In this document: positions 12,648-16,710 of the stretch, piece by piece
Layout: the number at the start of each line of letters is the position of its first letter
Numbering within the stretch: position 1 is the first letter of the stretch
From: Edaphobacter aggregans
GTDB taxonomy: Bacteria > Acidobacteriota > Terriglobia > Terriglobales > Acidobacteriaceae
Reading direction: 5' to 3'
Assembly: GCF_003945235.1 (NCBI RefSeq)
Contig: NZ_RSDW01000001.1
Span: 4,710,001-4,742,000 of the forward strand
Length of the DNA stretch: 32,000 bases
Position numbers and translations under genes: made by a program
The notes under the pieces: generated by a model
The model's database searches: none
What the model saw: only the letters and a program-made list of their open reading frames with translations
Told to the model about the DNA's origin: nothing

Positions 12648-13049
12648 ATGACAACAATAAAGGCGATTCGGCTGGCTTCGGTGGTCACGGCAGTCAATGT
12701 TCTAGTCGCGAGCGGCTTTTCGATCGCGGGGATCATCCGTCCGCAATACCTGGTCCCTGCGGGATACATTCCAACGCAGGCGTCGTTGATATTGGCGCTG
12801 TACGCGGCGGCGCGCACAATTCCTCTGGCTTTGTTCGCATTGTGGGCGATCTACAAGCAGGCGACGCCTGCGTTGCTGATCCTGGGTGCGCTTGCCGGCG
12901 CCATCCAATTGCTGGATGCCGGCATCGGTCTGTTTGAGCAGGATCTGGGGAAATGCGCTGGGCCGCTCTTGATCGCCGTCCTCCAATTCTTCGCGGTGTA
13001 TCTACTTCACAGATCGGTGCGGATCACGCTGCAAACCAATCGCGGATAA
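12648..13049 (+). CDS. small multi-pass membrane protein (tentatively DUF4267-like)
   Basis: About 133 aa with four hydrophobic segments (VVTAVNVLVASGFSIAGII, LILALYAAARTIPLALFALWAIY, ALLILGALAGAIQLLDAGIGL, LLIAVLQFFAVYLL). GAGAGGGG lies upstream of the ATG. The family name is a guess. Confidence 0.55.
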   Translation: MTTIKAIRLASVVTAVNVLVASGFSIAGIIRPQYLVPAGYIPTQASLILALYAAARTIPLALFALWAIYKQATPALLILGALAGAIQLLDAGIGLFEQDLGKCAGPLLIAVLQFFAVYLLHRSVRITLQTNRG

Positions 13050-13707
13050 AAGCACGCTTGTTGCCCCACACAAGCTTGCGCCAGGTGCGTCCACCCCCGT
13101 AATGGAGAAATACGAGAACCGCTTCCACCAAATCGAGTGTATGACCTGCGTTGATGGTGAGCAGGTTGGCGCCAGGAGATGTCTTATTGAAATAGTCATG
13201 GCTGGAAGGCAGCTCCGGCCCGAAACCGACGTTGGTGGAGACAATTCTGGCGTTGAGTGGGCGTCCAATCTTCCCGGAAGAAATCAACTGAGCTGCACGG
13301 CGCACGGCTGGATTCAACCGACCTTGCAATCCAATCGCGGTATGAAGCGAACTTACCGCTCTGGCCATCTCTTCAGCCTCCGCGACGGTGCGTCCGAGGG
13401 GCGCCTCGCAGTACACTGCCTTGCCGGCCTCGAGCCCCGCCAGAACGAGTTCGCGGTGCGCGGGTACCTTGACGGCGATCGTTACGACGTCGATCCGGTC
13501 ATCGTGGATCATCGCGAACGGGTCGGACAACCAGCGCTCGGCTTCGAAGGCTTGAGCCGCTTCCCGGGCACTCCGCTCGTTGCGCGTCGCCACAGCCGCG
13601 AGCCTAAGACCGGGGAGACCTTTGATGGCCGGAACATGCGACACCTTCGCCCAGCTTTTTTCAGCGTTTGCCCCAACGATTCCGACACGAATTTCATTCT
13701 GCGTCAT
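13024..13707 (-). CDS. Gfo/Idh/MocA family oxidoreductase, apparently C-terminally truncated
   Basis: The N-terminal Rossmann domain (IRVGIVGANAEKSWAKVSHVPAI...DVVTIAVKVPAHRELVLAGLEAGKAVYCEAPL) is intact. The ORF is only 227 aa, its last ~30 aa look unrelated to the family, and it overlaps the convergent membrane gene. Confidence 0.6.
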   Translation of the reverse strand: MTQNEIRVGIVGANAEKSWAKVSHVPAIKGLPGLRLAAVATRNERSAREAAQAFEAERWLSDPFAMIHDDRIDVVTIAVKVPAHRELVLAGLEAGKAVYCEAPLGRTVAEAEEMARAVSSLHTAIGLQGRLNPAVRRAAQLISSGKIGRPLNARIVSTNVGFGPELPSSHDYFNKTSPGANLLTINAGHTLDLVEAVLVFLHYGGGRTWRKLVWGNKRAFIRDWFAA

Positions 13708-13804: not shown

Positions 13805-14074
13805 TTATCCATTGCTCCTCTTCCTTTCGCCGCCTCGTAGATCGGCAGTTTTGGACTCCGAAGCATCGAAGTTCCGAGGAGGCTGTAGGGTGCCGAGCGA
13901 ATGCACCATTGTGTGTTTGACCGAACGCCTCTTAATATGATCCCAAGGAATGCAACGTAAGATCCCTTTGCAGATCAGGGCGGCGATCCCGAAGAAGCAT
14001 AATGAGACTATTGCGACTATTGCTTTGATAAGCCAGAGAGCATACCAAATCTGTTCCACGTTCTCGTTTCTCAA
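13805..14074 (-). CDS. hypothetical small single-pass membrane protein (weak call)
   Basis: AAGGAG lies 5 nt upstream of a TTG at 14074. There is one hydrophobic helix (IWYALWLIKAIVAIVSLCFFGIAALI). The ORF lies in an AT-richer patch and overlaps another ORF (13932-14300) in a different frame, so both cannot be real. Confidence 0.25.
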   Translation of the reverse strand: MRNENVEQIWYALWLIKAIVAIVSLCFFGIAALICKGILRCIPWDHIKRRSVKHTMVHSLGTLQPPRNFDASESKTADLRGGERKRSNG

Positions 14075-14206
14075 TGTTTCTCCTTGAATCAACTATCGAG
14101 CCGCGATTCCCAGCGAGCGGCTCGCAATAGTGGGTGAGCACTTGTCGAGCGGCTTCAGAGAGCGAGAGGTGAAGCTCGGTCTTCAGTCGCCGCACAGAGA
14201 TTCGCA

Positions 14207-14575
14207 TCAGTGCATATGAATGTTGCCAGAGCCTCCTGGCTCGTTTTTCGCTAGCAAGCACAGAAAGAACATCGAGACGGATATAAGAGAGAGGAGCCAA
14301 TAGACGTCGATGTAAGAAAGGGCTTGAGCCTGCGTGTTGAGCATGCTGTACATTCGGGCGAGTGCTCCTTGTTGCGCGGAATGCATGTCGAAACCGGCAT
14401 GTGAAAGGCGCGTGGCTAAGTCTGCGACGGCCTCATTGAACCAGGGGGAGCGCGTATACACAGAGAGAACCGATTGATGGTATTGGTCAAGGCGTTGCGT
14501 GGCAGCTCTAGGTCTCACCTGTTCCCAGAGTTGAATGCCCACGCCGGTGTTTTCTCTGCCTTGACTAGTACGTCT
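14207..14575 (-). pseudogene. 3' remnant of an EmrB/DHA2-type MFS efflux transporter gene (C-terminal ~110 aa only)
   Basis: The translation (YHQSVLSVYTRSPWFNEAVADL...AQQGALARMYSMLNTQAQALSYIDVYWLLSLISVSMFFLCLLAKNEPGGSGNIHMH) matches the extracytoplasmic loop, last TM helix and Gly-rich tail of EmrB-like proteins. The frame is closed by a stop at 14576-14578, and no N-terminal 13 TM helices are present. Confidence 0.65.
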
Positions 14576-14898
14576 CTAATGCCAGCAAGAAGGTTGTTCG
14601 GGCCATCCTCCAGCGTTGCATTCGCGAAGGCATCGCGCTCACCGAGATTTCCCGCAATGGAAACTATGGGAATACGCGATCCAGACGCTCGAATCAAGCT
14701 AGTGAGGTGATCCCGGTCCTTTCTGGGAACAGAACGGCACAGCAGGACAAGGTCGAAATCACCGGACTGAAAGCGATTGACCGCCTCTTTTAGGGATGAT
14801 GCTGACTCGACCATGTATCCCGCGGATTGCAGGACTAGACTTCGAGTCTCCAATAACGATGGATCGAAGCCAATAGAGAGAACTATAGTTAGCGACAT
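14515..14898 (-). CDS. stand-alone receiver-like (REC) domain protein lacking the canonical acidic pocket and phospho-acceptor Asp
   Basis: The 127-aa sequence has CheY-like periodicity (IVLSIGFDPSLLETRSLVLQSAGYMVESASSLKEAVNRFQSGDFDLVLLCRSVP...IPIVSIAG). The DD position reads GF, and the DLVLLD position reads DLVLLC. GAGGT lies upstream of the ATG. Confidence 0.65.
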   Translation of the reverse strand: MSLTIVLSIGFDPSLLETRSLVLQSAGYMVESASSLKEAVNRFQSGDFDLVLLCRSVPRKDRDHLTSLIRASGSRIPIVSIAGNLGERDAFANATLEDGPNNLLAGIRDVLVKAEKTPAWAFNSGNR

Positions 14899-15021
14899 GT
14901 ATACCTCGGCTCTCGAAAAGAACGATTCCGATGGGTTAGGACCTAAGGACTAGGAATCGCCTTCTCTTGTGACATGACTTTCTTTTCAATTCTCAGCCAG
15001 GCTTCAGCTGCCCGCCTATCT

Positions 15022-15675
15022 TCACAAACGCGTTATACGTGTCCTTTCAAGCCTGGAAACGGCTCCGTGGAGCACTTCGTCTTCACTCAGCGCACGAATG
15101 AGTGACTTCCTTGCTCTCAGCAAGCGCGACTTTATCGCGACAAGCGAAGCCCGTGTCCGTGCGGCAACTTCGGACACAGTGACCTCCTCCGAACAACGAA
15201 TCTCGGTGGCCTCTCGGAGTAACGGCGGCAAATGCCGTACAGCCTTTCGGAGTTTGAGGTTTCTCTCTCGCTCAAGAAAGCGGCGCTCTGGATCCAATCC
15301 CGGATCGTAACTTTGCAAATGGGATAACATATCCCCGTCGAAAGGACTCTCAGGATGGGCCCGCTTTTTCCGAACGATCATCAGCGCAGAGTTGATCGCA
15401 ATGCGCGTAAGCCAAGTGGGAAACTTCGACCTTCCATCAAACTTATTGAGGTGAATGAACGCCTTTAGCAGTGATTCCTGCAATCCATCCTCTGCATCTT
15501 CTTCGCTCCGAGTAATTCGGTGAATCGAGCGCAAAATACTACTCGAGTGGCGCCTGCAAAGTTTGGCATAGGCCAGATGCATTCCCGCTTTTGCTGAGAT
15601 GACGAGCGCCTCGTCGGACGCAACTGCTAACGTACTTCCCATTGGAGAGTCTGCTCCTGCATCAAACGGATTCAT
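15022..15675 (-). CDS. RNA polymerase ECF-type sigma-70 family factor
   Basis: Region 2 (DAEDGLQESLLKAFIHLNKFDGRSKFPTWLTRIAINSALMIVRKKR) and region 4 (TVSEVAARTRASLVAIKSRLLRARKSL). The start is at the ATG preceded by GGAGGA; the ATG at 15687 is an alternative. Confidence 0.85.
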   Translation of the reverse strand: MNPFDAGADSPMGSTLAVASDEALVISAKAGMHLAYAKLCRRHSSSILRSIHRITRSEEDAEDGLQESLLKAFIHLNKFDGRSKFPTWLTRIAINSALMIVRKKRAHPESPFDGDMLSHLQSYDPGLDPERRFLERERNLKLRKAVRHLPPLLREATEIRCSEEVTVSEVAARTRASLVAIKSRLLRARKSLIRALSEDEVLHGAVSRLERTRITRL

Positions 15676-15713
15676 CGGTTCCTCCATTGCATCGATACAA
15701 GAGCACAGTCAGT

Positions 15714-16142
15714 TCATCTGATTCCCAGTAACGCACGCGGAGCACGTTCGGTAAGATCTTTTGCCGTGTGACCTGCCATCAGCCAGCCATGCTTCCGCAT
15801 CCCCAGAACCAGCAGATCCGAGTGATGTCTCTTCGTGCAATCGATAATGGTGCCCACTTCGTCTCCACTGATCAACTCGGCATCGATTACCAGTCCTGCC
15901 GCCTTGGCCTGTTGTCGGGCTTCGACTTGGAGTGCGCTGTACCTAGCTCTCTTCTCCTCGGTATCAGTCCAGTGGACAGCCGGTACTGCACTCATCGCGA
16001 AGGAGTAGTAGCTGGGAAGCGGCTCAAGGACGGTGACCACACTGAGCTCTGCCCGTAGCGCTTTCGCTAACTCGATTGACAAGCGAAGCGCCCTGCCAGC
16101 TTCGGGCGAGTCATCATAAGCAACCATGATCTTGTGAAACAT
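15714..16142 (-). CDS. universal stress protein (UspA family)
   Basis: MFHKIMVAYDDSPEAGRALRLSIELAKALRAELSVVTV...HHSDLLVLGMRKHGWL...TAKDLTERAPRALLGIR. AGGAGG lies upstream of the ATG. Confidence 0.9.
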   Translation of the reverse strand: MFHKIMVAYDDSPEAGRALRLSIELAKALRAELSVVTVLEPLPSYYSFAMSAVPAVHWTDTEEKRARYSALQVEARQQAKAAGLVIDAELISGDEVGTIIDCTKRHHSDLLVLGMRKHGWLMAGHTAKDLTERAPRALLGIR

Positions 16143-16242
16143 TGCGATCCTCCTTTATCAAATCGTGGAACCCCTGAAATTGACGACGCCCACTCCCAGG
16201 GCTCTAGTCCATCCGAAGTAATGTCATGCCGCGGCGCTCGAT

Positions 16243-16710
16243 TCACGGGGGCGATGGCACGGTTGTGCGGTCTTCCTTCCGTGAGGATCGTGCATTACGG
16301 CTGGTTAACCGGGTAACGATCGCAAAGAGGAGGCTCACCGAGATTCCGCACATCAACACGCCGATGATGCTCTCCAGCGGCCCAAGCGTGCGCCAGTTCG
16401 ACGGGAGACTCAAGTCATTGCAGCCGAGCGTCGAATAACTGCTCGCGGAGAAGTAGATCGAAGAGTCCCATGACGGTAGACACCTCCAGCGATAGAAGCA
16501 TGCCCACAGCAGAATCTCCATTCCGTGCAGGACAACGACTGCTGCTGTAAACCGCACAAGCAACGCTGCAGAACGAATGGCGCCAAGCTCCTGCATATCT
16601 CCTCCTAACGCACGTCGCACCCACACGATGAGAATCGCGACTCCTGCAGACTGTAGCCACAGCGTGACCGTGATGAGAGGCAACTCGGCGCCAAATCGAT
16701 GAACAGACAT
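16243..16710 (-). CDS. ion-channel-like membrane protein (Ion_trans_2 / K+ channel pore fold) with a non-canonical filter TLGCND
   Basis: Pore-region pattern WDSSIYFSASSYSTLGCNDLSLP flanked by TM helices, where canonical K+ channels have T-x-G-Y-G-D. The ATG at 16710 lies 23 nt after the outer-membrane gene stop and is preceded by AAAGGAAAA. Confidence 0.65.
   Translation of the reverse strand: MSVHRFGAELPLITVTLWLQSAGVAILIVWVRRALGGDMQELGAIRSAALLVRFTAAVVVLHGMEILLWACFYRWRCLPSWDSSIYFSASSYSTLGCNDLSLPSNWRTLGPLESIIGVLMCGISVSLLFAIVTRLTSRNARSSRKEDRTTVPSPP

Follow-up and report, generated by a model that had tools for sequence, protein, structure and literature searches.

The window analysed here is a stretch of 32,000 nucleotides from Edaphobacter aggregans, a soil acidobacterium. 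At the locus under study, a gene for an ECF-type sigma factor is accompanied by genes for an aspartate-less receiver (REC) and a universal stress protein (USP), with the following features:

13805 to 14074, minus strand: conserved 89-aa single-pass membrane protein (smTM), a rival candidate for the sigma partner
14132 to 16250, no strand assigned: 2.1-kb block of USP, sigma, REC and MFS remnant, from blastn of contig L178 against the window
14207 to 14542, minus strand: remnant of an MFS transporter gene (DHA2/EmrB type), C-terminal part only, that overlaps the stop of REC
14515 to 14898, minus strand: stand-alone Cys-type aspartate-less receiver (REC), 127 aa, with G10/F11, C54, A82 and G99, and with helix alpha4 turned into a loop
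14899 to 15021, minus strand: sigma-REC spacer, 123 nt, constant in length in close orthologues and ending with the REC Shine-Dalgarno GAGG
15022 to 15675, minus strand: ECF-type sigma factor gene, 217 aa (221 aa from an alternative upstream ATG at 15687)
15714 to 16142, minus strand: USP gene travelling with the sigma-REC pair (Pfam Usp, 75.5 bits)

The sigma open reading frame extends at most over 15022-15687 on the minus strand (221 aa), and the likely gene is 15022-15675, since a GGAGG Shine-Dalgarno lies 5 nt ahead of its ATG. Its product matches Sigma70_r2 (PF04542) with 53.2 bits and Sigma70_r4_2 (PF08281) with 24.9 bits, the latter slightly below the cut-off of 25.7, and reaches 74.9 bits against the NCBIfam model TIGR02937 (sigma70-ECF; cut-off 42.9). 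Regions 2 and 4 gave the only Pfam matches and regions 1 and 3 are absent, which places the protein among the ECF (group 4) sigma-70 factors. The nearest solved structures are AlgU/RpoE-type ECFs, with the 217-aa protein aligning end to end, and even the top-scoring NCBIfam equivalog models each remain well under their cut-off.

The spacer is identical at 111/123 positions to that of Tunturiibacter gelidiferens and at 82/123 to that of G330 (alignment A2). We rejected a structured RNA in the spacer, since it accumulates substitutions at about the rate of synonymous sites, has no Rfam match and yields only two compensatory pairs among near-identical sequences in RNAalifold. A scan of positions 14100-16400 on both strands revealed neither a sigma-70-like promoter nor a coding-strand terminator, and a simple search for an ECF-type promoter (GGAAC-N15-18-CGT) found none.

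With respect to the receiver, coordinates, Pfam and AlphaFold2 (AF2) all agree with the initial annotation, which had described a 127-aa REC-fold protein 123 nt downstream of the sigma gene on the same strand. REC scores 30.8 bits against PF00072 (gathering score 30.2), its AF2 model has a mean pLDDT of 85.6, and CheY4, PhoP and PhoB-type receivers match this model at a TM of ~0.76 (Foldseek). The model shows the canonical (beta-alpha)5 CheY-like fold except for helix alpha4, in whose place there is a 12-residue loop. HMMER alignments to TrrA and CheY bear out the earlier reading of the acidic pair as G10-F11 and of a Cys at the acceptor position: C54 falls on the acceptor Asp in TrrA and on D57 in CheY, the CheY D57C mutant 1c4w is among the top HMMER matches, and in the AF2 model C54 lies immediately past strand beta3 (residues 50-53). 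Alignment and placement after beta1, beta4 and beta5 agree on G10-F11 for the acidic pair, A82 for the conserved Thr and G99 (then P100) for the conserved Lys. REC thus has neither the acceptor Asp nor the acidic pair, Thr/Ser and Lys of canonical receivers, which excludes conventional phosphorylation, as had been claimed. With Cys at the acceptor position it qualifies as a Cys-ALR, a class that is descriptive and not a homologous family. That REC is still phosphorylated at some other residue (e.g., D12 or Cys54) by an unlinked histidine kinase seems to us highly improbable: some pseudo-receivers keep partial activity after single catalytic changes (PMC12632262) and a few REC family members have Asp at position 54, but here all five catalytic positions are changed together, helix alpha4 is missing, and the sigma-type loci have no linked kinase.

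REC belongs to a large, uncharacterised family, found mainly in Acidobacteriaceae, that is without helix alpha4. We observe Cys54, usually as Cys-His, in 180/193 unique close relatives (93%) and in 97 of 163 distant representative domains (60%), and this retention in close and distant relatives alike indicates that Cys54 is more than drift. His55 is present in 157 of the 193 close sequences; the window REC has a single Cys, and Arg stands where relatives have His55 and Cys88. Among the 150 best representatives of the family, fusions comprise only EAL, PAS and tandem copies, with no Rosetta-stone fusion of REC to a sigma. With dN/dS values of 0.39-0.56, the cassette genes are under selection.

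Comparison with a metagenome contig (L178) shows that USP-sigma-REC is an insertion into the tail of an RND operon. This contig is 90% identical to the window and has the same flanks (pump, channel, small membrane protein and oxidoreductase), with 265 nt instead of the 2.1-kb block. The breakpoint at 14475 is recurrent, being common to L027 and L180. The insertion is flanked by gene remnants, namely the MFS fragment and a truncated Gfo/Idh/MocA gene; the MFS remnant has no Pfam match and shows 36% identity (tblastn) to residues 436-520 of a 530-aa MFS protein encoded after REC in L022. No match to the cassette was found on plasmids, at either the DNA or the protein level. The insertion and its flanking remnants are what one would expect if the cassette were an accessory import in decay, now serving little or no function in this genome, as are a partial empty-site copy elsewhere in the genome beside an IS110-type transposase, the loss of His55 and Cys88 from REC, frameshifts and truncations in relatives, and the failure to find cassette orthologues in the 24 genomes sampled from this genus (best match, 35% identity). 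We nevertheless regard decay as distinctly improbable, as the REC and sigma ORFs are both intact with good ribosome-binding sites, dN/dS is below 1, Cys54 and other family hallmarks are kept, and several soil metagenomes contain intact copies of the cassette that are nearly identical.

Among alternative sigma factors the ECF class is the largest, and for many of their groups the mechanism holding the sigma inactive is not known. The absence of a recognisable anti-sigma gene, already remarked on for this locus, holds and is true of the entire sigma clade in Acidobacteriaceae. No neighbouring ORF has a Pfam match to an anti-sigma domain, and the gene downstream of the clade's paralogues encodes an SDR, AKR, ALDH, ferritin-like or Crp protein, with no ASD-type anti-sigma gene among them. 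REC itself is not a zinc-binding (ZAS) anti-sigma, having one Cys, no HxxxCxxC and a receiver fold. A 161-aa gene between sigma and REC in L022 was rejected as a classical anti-sigma, since it encodes a polytopic membrane protein with no N-terminal cytoplasmic domain. Sister sigmas (63% and 47% identity) adjoin a gene for an RsbW-like HATPase_c_2 protein (L019, L170), indicating that a soluble partner occupies that neighbourhood in the sigma clade; the cassette is without an HATPase_c_2 gene and so does not represent RsbW/RsbV-type partner switching. An orphan RsbW-like and STAS (RsbW/RsbV-like) pair lies at 1.07 Mb in the genome, 3.6 Mb from the cassette. A STAS mini-protein is encoded at the head of the pump operon.

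The missing anti-sigma could instead be smTM, whose cytoplasmic tail would bind the sigma, with REC as a partner-switch antagonist or unrelated. smTM is a real family (57 clusters) with a strongly conserved tail motif, IPWxRVKRRSVKHxMVHSLGTLxPPRNFDASESK (alignment A4), and its genes lie directly after REC in L061, L177 and L180-182; in L179 the gene follows an ECF sigma of 37% identity at a distance of 74 nt, and in L170 it stands between the RsbW-like kinase and the sister sigma of 63% identity. Furthermore, among 401 family genomes it is found only in the two that also carry the window sigma. We consider this role improbable, however, because smTM is also encoded at loci with no sigma at all (CHAN-78aa-smTM-GFO in L178, HATPase_c_2-smTM-SDR in G330), is part of the backbone that received the USP-sigma-REC insertion, and is absent from the sigma-REC loci of T. 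gelidiferens, L169 and type B. Its tail of ~45 residues is predicted to be disordered and matches no anti-sigma domain. A folded anti-sigma domain in smTM was rejected, as AF2 gives only a long transmembrane helix (residues 3-51) and a low-confidence tail, and the protein has no Pfam family.

The pairing of sigma and REC is kept as a two-gene core in at least five genomic backgrounds, with sigma identity at 68-72% and REC identity at 51-57% at the farthest. These backgrounds are the RND-operon tail (this window, L177 and L180-182); T. gelidiferens, where only a 1.47-kb USP'-sigma-REC piece is in common, at 91% nucleotide identity; L066, with sigma-REC behind a different pump; G330/L139 and P0144 (sigma 68-72%, REC 51%), with tandem USP genes following; and L169 (sigma 68%, REC 57%), in unrelated surroundings. 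USP genes accompany sigma-REC also in L066, L085, L126, L139, L177 and L180-182, the order being USP-sigma-REC in the window and USP-REC-sigma or sigma-REC-USPx2 in relatives. The pairing has also been repeatedly re-invented, with independent recurrences in no fewer than three further ECF sigma lineages, and sigma adjacency had separate origins in at least three REC clades. In one other clade REC precedes sigmaB, 33% identical to the window sigma, with a gap of 1-20 nt and nothing conserved downstream; the gene order is sigma, membrane protein, REC in L022 and USP, REC, sigma (43% identity to the window sigma) in L126. A co-directional adjacent sigma gene is present in 15 of 37 informative unique close-subfamily loci, far above the base rate of ~1.2% expected from 31 sigma genes in a 6.15-Mb genome; no sigma is present in 19 of the 37, most of which stand after an RND pump or before an MFS pump. 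Such a conserved and recurrent pairing fits the pseudo-receiver as a sigma partner.

Most members of the wider family have no sigma gene beside them. In an unbiased sample of a further 27 REC-family genome loci, the adjacent gene encodes a sigma in 1, a Crp/Fnr regulator in ~8 and a NarL-type regulator in 3. Many close relatives of REC directly follow MFP-RND-OMF genes or precede a DHA2 MFS gene, without a sigma, and REC remains intact beside sigma genes that carry a frameshift (L064, in four assemblies) or a truncation (L070). The proposal of the initial annotation that REC might be the sigma partner stands in part, the pairing being conserved and recurrent. Most family members adjoin Crp/Fnr or NarL-type regulators or efflux pumps. 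These other neighbours and the survival of REC beside broken sigmas, together with the RsbW-like and STAS pair at 1.07 Mb and the sixteen ECF groups known without a linked regulator (PMC7826278), favour co-location only. Control of the sigma would then lie in transcription (from a promoter of its own, or as read-through out of the sigma-54-driven pump operon), in proteolysis or in a distantly encoded regulator, e.g., the orphan RsbW/RsbV-like pair, and the Cys pseudo-receiver would be an independent sensor whose targets are the pumps (their expression or activity) or regulators of the Crp/Fnr or NarL type. We take co-location seriously while judging it rather unlikely, given that sigma and REC stay paired across five changes of context and at REC identities as low as 51-57%, that sigma adjacency has separate origins in at least three REC clades, and that it is far in excess of the base rate. 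Since REC clades stand beside ECF sigma, Crp/Fnr and NarL regulators or RND/MFS pumps, gene context lends good support to a probable role of the family as partner of transcription regulators, and the adjacency to Crp/Fnr or NarL and the EAL or PAS fusions give it the look of a plug-in regulatory or sensory module.

Our working model, which we hold tentatively and at somewhat below an even chance, is that sigma and REC form a conserved two-gene regulatory cassette, usually with USP, in which the Cys pseudo-receiver contacts the sigma. The 127-aa stand-alone pseudo-receiver would have given up phosphotransfer and would act on the adjacent transcription regulator by protein-protein contact, here on an ECF sigma without a conventional anti-sigma. 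REC would bind the sigma directly, as either inhibitor or stabiliser. The input site is likely to be the near-invariant Cys within what was once the phosphorylation pocket, and thiol sensing by Cys54 would consist in its oxidation or electrophile modification, switching the receiver conformation so that the sigma is held or released (or stabilised). Several observations count against this sigma-REC model: dN/dS is rather high for a core regulator, His55 and Cys88 are Arg in the window REC, a sigma-REC fusion is missing, 1/27 loci have a sigma, REC outlives broken sigmas, and smTM and the orphan RsbW/RsbV-like pair offer alternative partners. A broader version, which we find doubtful, would make Cys(-His) pseudo-receivers without alpha4 a new class of thiol-switch partners docking onto ECF sigmas, Crp/Fnr and NarL regulators and replacing the anti-sigma here, with Cys modification substituting for aspartyl phosphate as the switch.

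Receiver proteins are known to control ECF sigmas in other systems. SigP of Porphyromonas gingivalis (ECF228) is likewise an ECF sigma without anti-sigma: PorX, a protein with a receiver domain, binds it directly and stabilises it, and the SigP level depends on this binding (PMC7826278). In Foldseek, PorX receivers rank with many others among the top structural matches to REC. PorX has 500 aa and is a response regulator that can be phosphorylated; it includes an enzymatic domain, has a cognate kinase and is encoded away from sigP, whereas REC has 127 aa, is aspartate-less and is encoded beside the sigma. In PhyR-NepR-EcfG (ECF15), a receiver domain also controls an ECF sigma, by protein-protein competition; PhyR, however, works through the small anti-sigma NepR and joins an N-terminal sigma-like domain to a receiver whose Asp can be phosphorylated. 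REC is a receiver only, has no Asp, and has no recognisable NepR-like gene nearby, and the PhyR/NepR-like partner switch once suggested for this locus finds no support, as Pfam and the neighbourhood revealed neither a PhyR-like sigma-mimic domain nor a recognisable NepR.

For the cysteine switch, RsrA-SigR and ChrR-SigE resemble the proposal in that a cytoplasmic cysteine switch frees an ECF sigma under oxidative or electrophile stress. RsrA and ChrR are zinc-binding anti-sigma domains with HxxxCxxC, whereas REC is a receiver by fold, with only one Cys in this copy. Redox switching by pseudo-receivers is known from RitR and HP1021 (PMC12632262); these two and CemR are aspartate-less receivers in which oxidation of a cysteine determines activity (PMC5965902, PMC12632262). 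Their reactive Cys lies in a linker or in the alpha1-beta2 loop and they have their own DNA-binding domain, whereas the REC Cys is at the acceptor position. The Cys-ALRs of Maule et al. (2015, PMC4395418) share with REC the receiver fold, the Cys for the acceptor Asp and a proposed redox-sensing role, and the same paper describes Acidobacteria as rich in ALRs. The 26 Cys-ALR sequences mostly carry output domains (HTH, GGDEF/EAL, DsbA or HK), and none was tested or sigma-linked (PMC4395418); the REC family, in contrast, is stand-alone, has a Cys-His dyad and no alpha4, and is paired with ECF sigma, Crp/Fnr and efflux genes. Cys-type aspartate-less receivers are a known bioinformatic class, in which the REC family and its pairing with a sigma have not been described.

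If the working model is true, a 127-aa aspartate-less receiver would be a new type of soluble ECF sigma regulator. It would also provide the first concrete, testable function for Cys-type pseudo-receivers, which have been catalogued since 2015 with no tested member found in the literature examined. The REC family is common in soil Acidobacteriaceae, and its links to efflux pumps, universal stress proteins and oxidoreductases suggest that it may bear on the sensing of oxidants or toxic electrophiles in these hard-to-study soil bacteria.

The ECF sigma factor gene of the window and the small receiver-fold gene that follows it (REC) are arranged on the minus strand, with a spacer of 123 nt, among these features:

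15714-16142, minus strand: universal stress protein gene (USP)
15022-15687, minus strand: ECF sigma open reading frame, 217-aa product likeliest from the ATG at 15675
14515-14898, minus strand: REC open reading frame, 127 aa, with its own GAGG ribosome-binding site
14207-14542: C-terminal remnant of a DHA2 MFS transporter gene (MFS'), at the end of a 2.1-kb block
13805-14074, minus strand: smTM, 89 aa, a single transmembrane helix with a strongly conserved basic tail

The 217-aa sigma product is preferred because GGAGG lies 5 bases before the ATG at 15675. It comprises regions 2 and 4 only, scores above the cut-off of NCBIfam's ECF superfamily model and can be aligned over its whole length with ECF sigma factors of the AlgU/RpoE type. 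None of the open reading frames neighbouring sigma-REC matches an anti-sigma domain, in agreement with the initial annotation, which described an ECF sigma factor lacking a recognisable anti-sigma gene and, 123 nt 3' of it on the same strand, a 127-aa receiver-fold gene; the latter is borne out by the open reading frame, Pfam and AlphaFold2. REC barely passes the Pfam receiver model (30.8 bits, threshold 30.2), and its AlphaFold2 model is a CheY-like sandwich (mean pLDDT 85.6) that Foldseek matches to CheY4, PhoP and PhoB-type receivers (TM ~0.76). Catalytic positions were assigned by HMMER alignment to solved receivers, with engineered CheY D57C (PDB 1c4w) among the best PDB matches, and here too the earlier reading (acidic pair replaced by G-F, Cys at the phospho-acceptor position) holds: the acidic pair corresponds to G10-F11, and C54 falls on the acceptor Asp, directly after beta3 (residues 50-53 of the model). 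The conserved Thr and Lys of receivers are replaced by A82 and G99, and the model lacks helix alpha4, the beta4-beta5 connection being a loop of only 12 residues.

A word-indexed search recovered 279 REC homologues (identity 62-99%), nearly all from soil metagenomes, and a HMMER scan of 1.84 billion representatives gave 141 clusters at E≤1e-30, a number that rises to 767 at E≤1e-10. Matches in named genomes are confined to Acidobacteriaceae (Alloacidobacterium, Tunturiibacter, Edaphobacter and Terracidiphilus); of 401 genomes sampled from this group, 24 carry a family member. Conservation was scored in a close set of 193 unique REC sequences and in 163 representative domains at most 50% identical. 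Position 54 is Cys in 180/193 and 97/163 (60%), respectively, Gly in 7/193 and 38/163 (23%), and Asp in 4/193 and 18/163 (11%); His55 is found in 157/193 and 93/163, and Cys88, in the beta4-beta5 loop, in 142/193 and 27/163. Further hallmarks are G10, D12, D49, S56, P58, R70 and P100. REC belongs to a real family whose Cys is under selection. The window's REC keeps Cys54 but carries Arg at 55 and at 88, a degenerate variant, and His55 is still present in a relative 99% identical to it. Pairwise dN/dS values (REC, 0.39-0.56; sigma, 0.39-0.47) indicate purifying selection that is not strong. Fusions are few: among the 150 best representatives we found no REC-family member fused to a sigma domain, and those joined to EAL or PAS domains or present as tandem REC-REC (P0334, P0389, P0320, P0242 and similar proteins) suggest an input-domain role for the module.

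Among 47 unique REC sequences of the close subfamily, a co-directional ECF sigma gene lies immediately beside REC in 15 loci and a sigma gene within 4 kb in 3; 19 loci have no adjacent sigma on flanks long enough to judge, and the flanks of the other 10 are too short. With 31 sigma-70-family genes in the window's genome, a random gene has a ~1.2% chance of a sigma neighbour. As the counted loci are not independent, the architectures outweigh these counts. Type A (sigma, 123 nt, REC) is found in the window and near-identical metagenome copies, one Alloacidobacterium MAG, loci L066 (behind a different pump), L177 and L180-182, and Tunturiibacter gelidiferens M8UP28. The last shares with the window only 1.47 kb (91% nucleotide identity), comprising the 3' part of USP, sigma, REC and the next 40 nt, in otherwise unrelated surroundings. 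Type B belongs to a separate REC clade: 1-20 nt past REC comes a different ECF sigma of 195 aa (sigmaB, 33% identical to the window's), with nothing conserved downstream. Locus L022 has the order sigma, polytopic membrane protein, REC, MFS, and L126 the order USP, REC, sigma (43% identical to the window's). In the REC tree every architecture has a clade to itself, so that sigma adjacency originated at least three times. Two syntenic type B loci carry a membrane-anchored FAD/NAD/2Fe-2S oxidoreductase gene 5' of REC-sigmaB (L084:5112-6707 and L099:5109-6707), which fits a redox theme.

Sampling by sigma rather than by REC added five homologues. Those of genome G330 (72% identical to the window sigma) and locus L169 (68%) are followed by REC (51% and 57% identical, respectively), in G330 then by tandem USP and in L169 in yet another neighbourhood; protein P0144 (68%) has a G330-like layout with a 137-aa gene without Pfam match, then tandem USP. 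The L168 sigma (74%) precedes an HD-domain gene and an IS240 transposase, with no REC, and L170 (63%) has no REC, with an RsbW-like kinase and smTM upstream. No ASD-type anti-sigma was found across the window sigma's clade, and the gene that comes after its paralogues (40-50% identity) encodes an SDR, aldo-keto reductase, aldehyde dehydrogenase, ferritin-like or Crp protein.

Contig L178, 90% identical to the window, carries RND-OMF-channel genes, a 78-aa gene, smTM and an intact 418-aa Gfo/Idh/MocA gene, with USP, sigma and REC absent. Window positions 14132-16250 (USP-sigma-REC-MFS') are a 2.1-kb replacement of 265 nt (L178:3678-3942), and MFS' is 36% identical to the C-terminal 85 residues of the MFS encoded after REC at other loci. 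A breakpoint at 14475 is common to the window, T. gelidiferens and L180, and the window's genome carries an incomplete copy of the "empty" configuration at 5.63 Mb, beside an IS110-type transposase. The mobile unit is USP-sigma-REC, and given this history it came to share the orientation of the pump operon only secondarily. The cassette also undergoes decay: a frameshift interrupts the type A sigma in four assemblies from a single Alloacidobacterium population (L026, L062, L063, L064), L070 has a 5'-truncated sigma, and REC is frameshifted in L100. The Alloacidobacterium frameshift is identical in all four assemblies (near codon 103, ~6531-6535 in L064), with REC intact. The window's Gfo/Idh/MocA gene (13024-13707, minus strand) encodes 227 aa versus 418 in L178 and is thus truncated.

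Sigma-less REC clades lie directly 3' of MFP-RND-OMF operons, 5' of DHA2 MFS genes, beside a GNAT-like gene, or beside a CHASE3-PAS kinase, NarL-type regulator and Crp/Fnr. Across 27 further REC-family loci from an unbiased genome sample, a sigma is adjacent in one (G330), a Crp/Fnr-family gene in ~8 and a NarL-type regulator in 3. From these mixed contexts, the common denominator is a small Cys pseudo-receiver by a regulator or pump, not by a sigma. In this more distant part of the Cys pseudo-receiver family (L031, L034, L116, L186, L189, L190, L193, L200, L207, L208), proximity to Crp/Fnr-family regulators recurs (the ~8 of 27 loci), and other members adjoin GlgE/TreS-maltokinase genes or hybrid kinase clusters.

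Cys-type aspartate-less receivers were catalogued in 2015 (26 sequences, Cys being the seventh commonest replacement), with redox sensing suggested (PMC4395418), and a 2025 review lists pseudo-receivers under redox control whose Cys lies in other parts of the domain (PMC12632262). The ECF reclassification lists 16 groups without known regulator, gives the PorX-SigP precedent and names no group in which a stand-alone receiver is conserved (PMC7826278). Membership tests place the sigma-REC locus outside the PhyR, ZAS anti-sigma and RsbW systems; it would be a new form of receiver-mediated or thiol-mediated ECF control.

In the best-supported mechanism, REC would be a stand-alone signalling module acting through binding to a neighbouring regulator, here the ECF sigma, with chemical modification of the pocket cysteine as input; this modification would change REC conformation and thereby its hold on sigma. 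REC may act as an anti-sigma (as RsrA) or as a stabiliser (as PorX for SigP), and may sense redox state or electrophiles. What the analysis establishes is the fold, the residue replacements, their conservation and the gene-order statistics; binding to sigma is inferred, as are its direction of effect and the sensing. In engineered phosphono-CheY (D57C), a modified Cys at the acceptor position can mimic aspartyl phosphate. The neighbouring USP, oxidoreductase, efflux pump and Crp/Fnr genes match an oxidant or toxic-compound theme without proving it. The proposal of the initial annotation that the Cys pseudo-receiver might partner the sigma is supported in part, tempered by the promiscuous contexts of the family and the window's Cys-Arg...Arg variant; judged from sequence, sigma-REC appears to be a real regulatory pair, uncharacterised and open to testing.

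The real anti-sigma could instead be smTM, which has 57 homologue clusters, no Pfam family, and a confident helix with an unstructured tail in AlphaFold2. It lies immediately 3' of REC in L061, L177 and L180-182, and 74 nt after an ECF sigma 37% identical to the window's in L179. In L170 it is flanked by an RsbW-like HATPase_c_2 gene and the 63%-identical sigma, and in G330 it follows an RsbW-like gene. It was found in 2/401 Acidobacteriaceae genomes, only those that carry this sigma of the window. However, smTM is present without sigma in L178 and missing from several sigma-REC loci, and its candidacy is therefore not favoured. Its recurrent contexts are ECF sigma genes, RsbW-like kinases and a Gfo/Idh/MocA gene, and a second copy lies by an IS110-type transposase in the window's genome (G000:5631243). 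RsbW-like HATPase_c_2 genes adjoin ECF-type sigmas 63% and 47% identical to the window's (L170:2642-4337 and L019:6546-8061), in L019 with a STAS-like mini-protein gene, seemingly an unusual partner-switching layout on group-4 sigmas. Finally, an orphan RsbW-like kinase (184 aa) and STAS antagonist (115 aa) at L174 (G000:1070675-1073965), with no sigma gene within the 3.3 kb read, could act in trans on a sigma factor.
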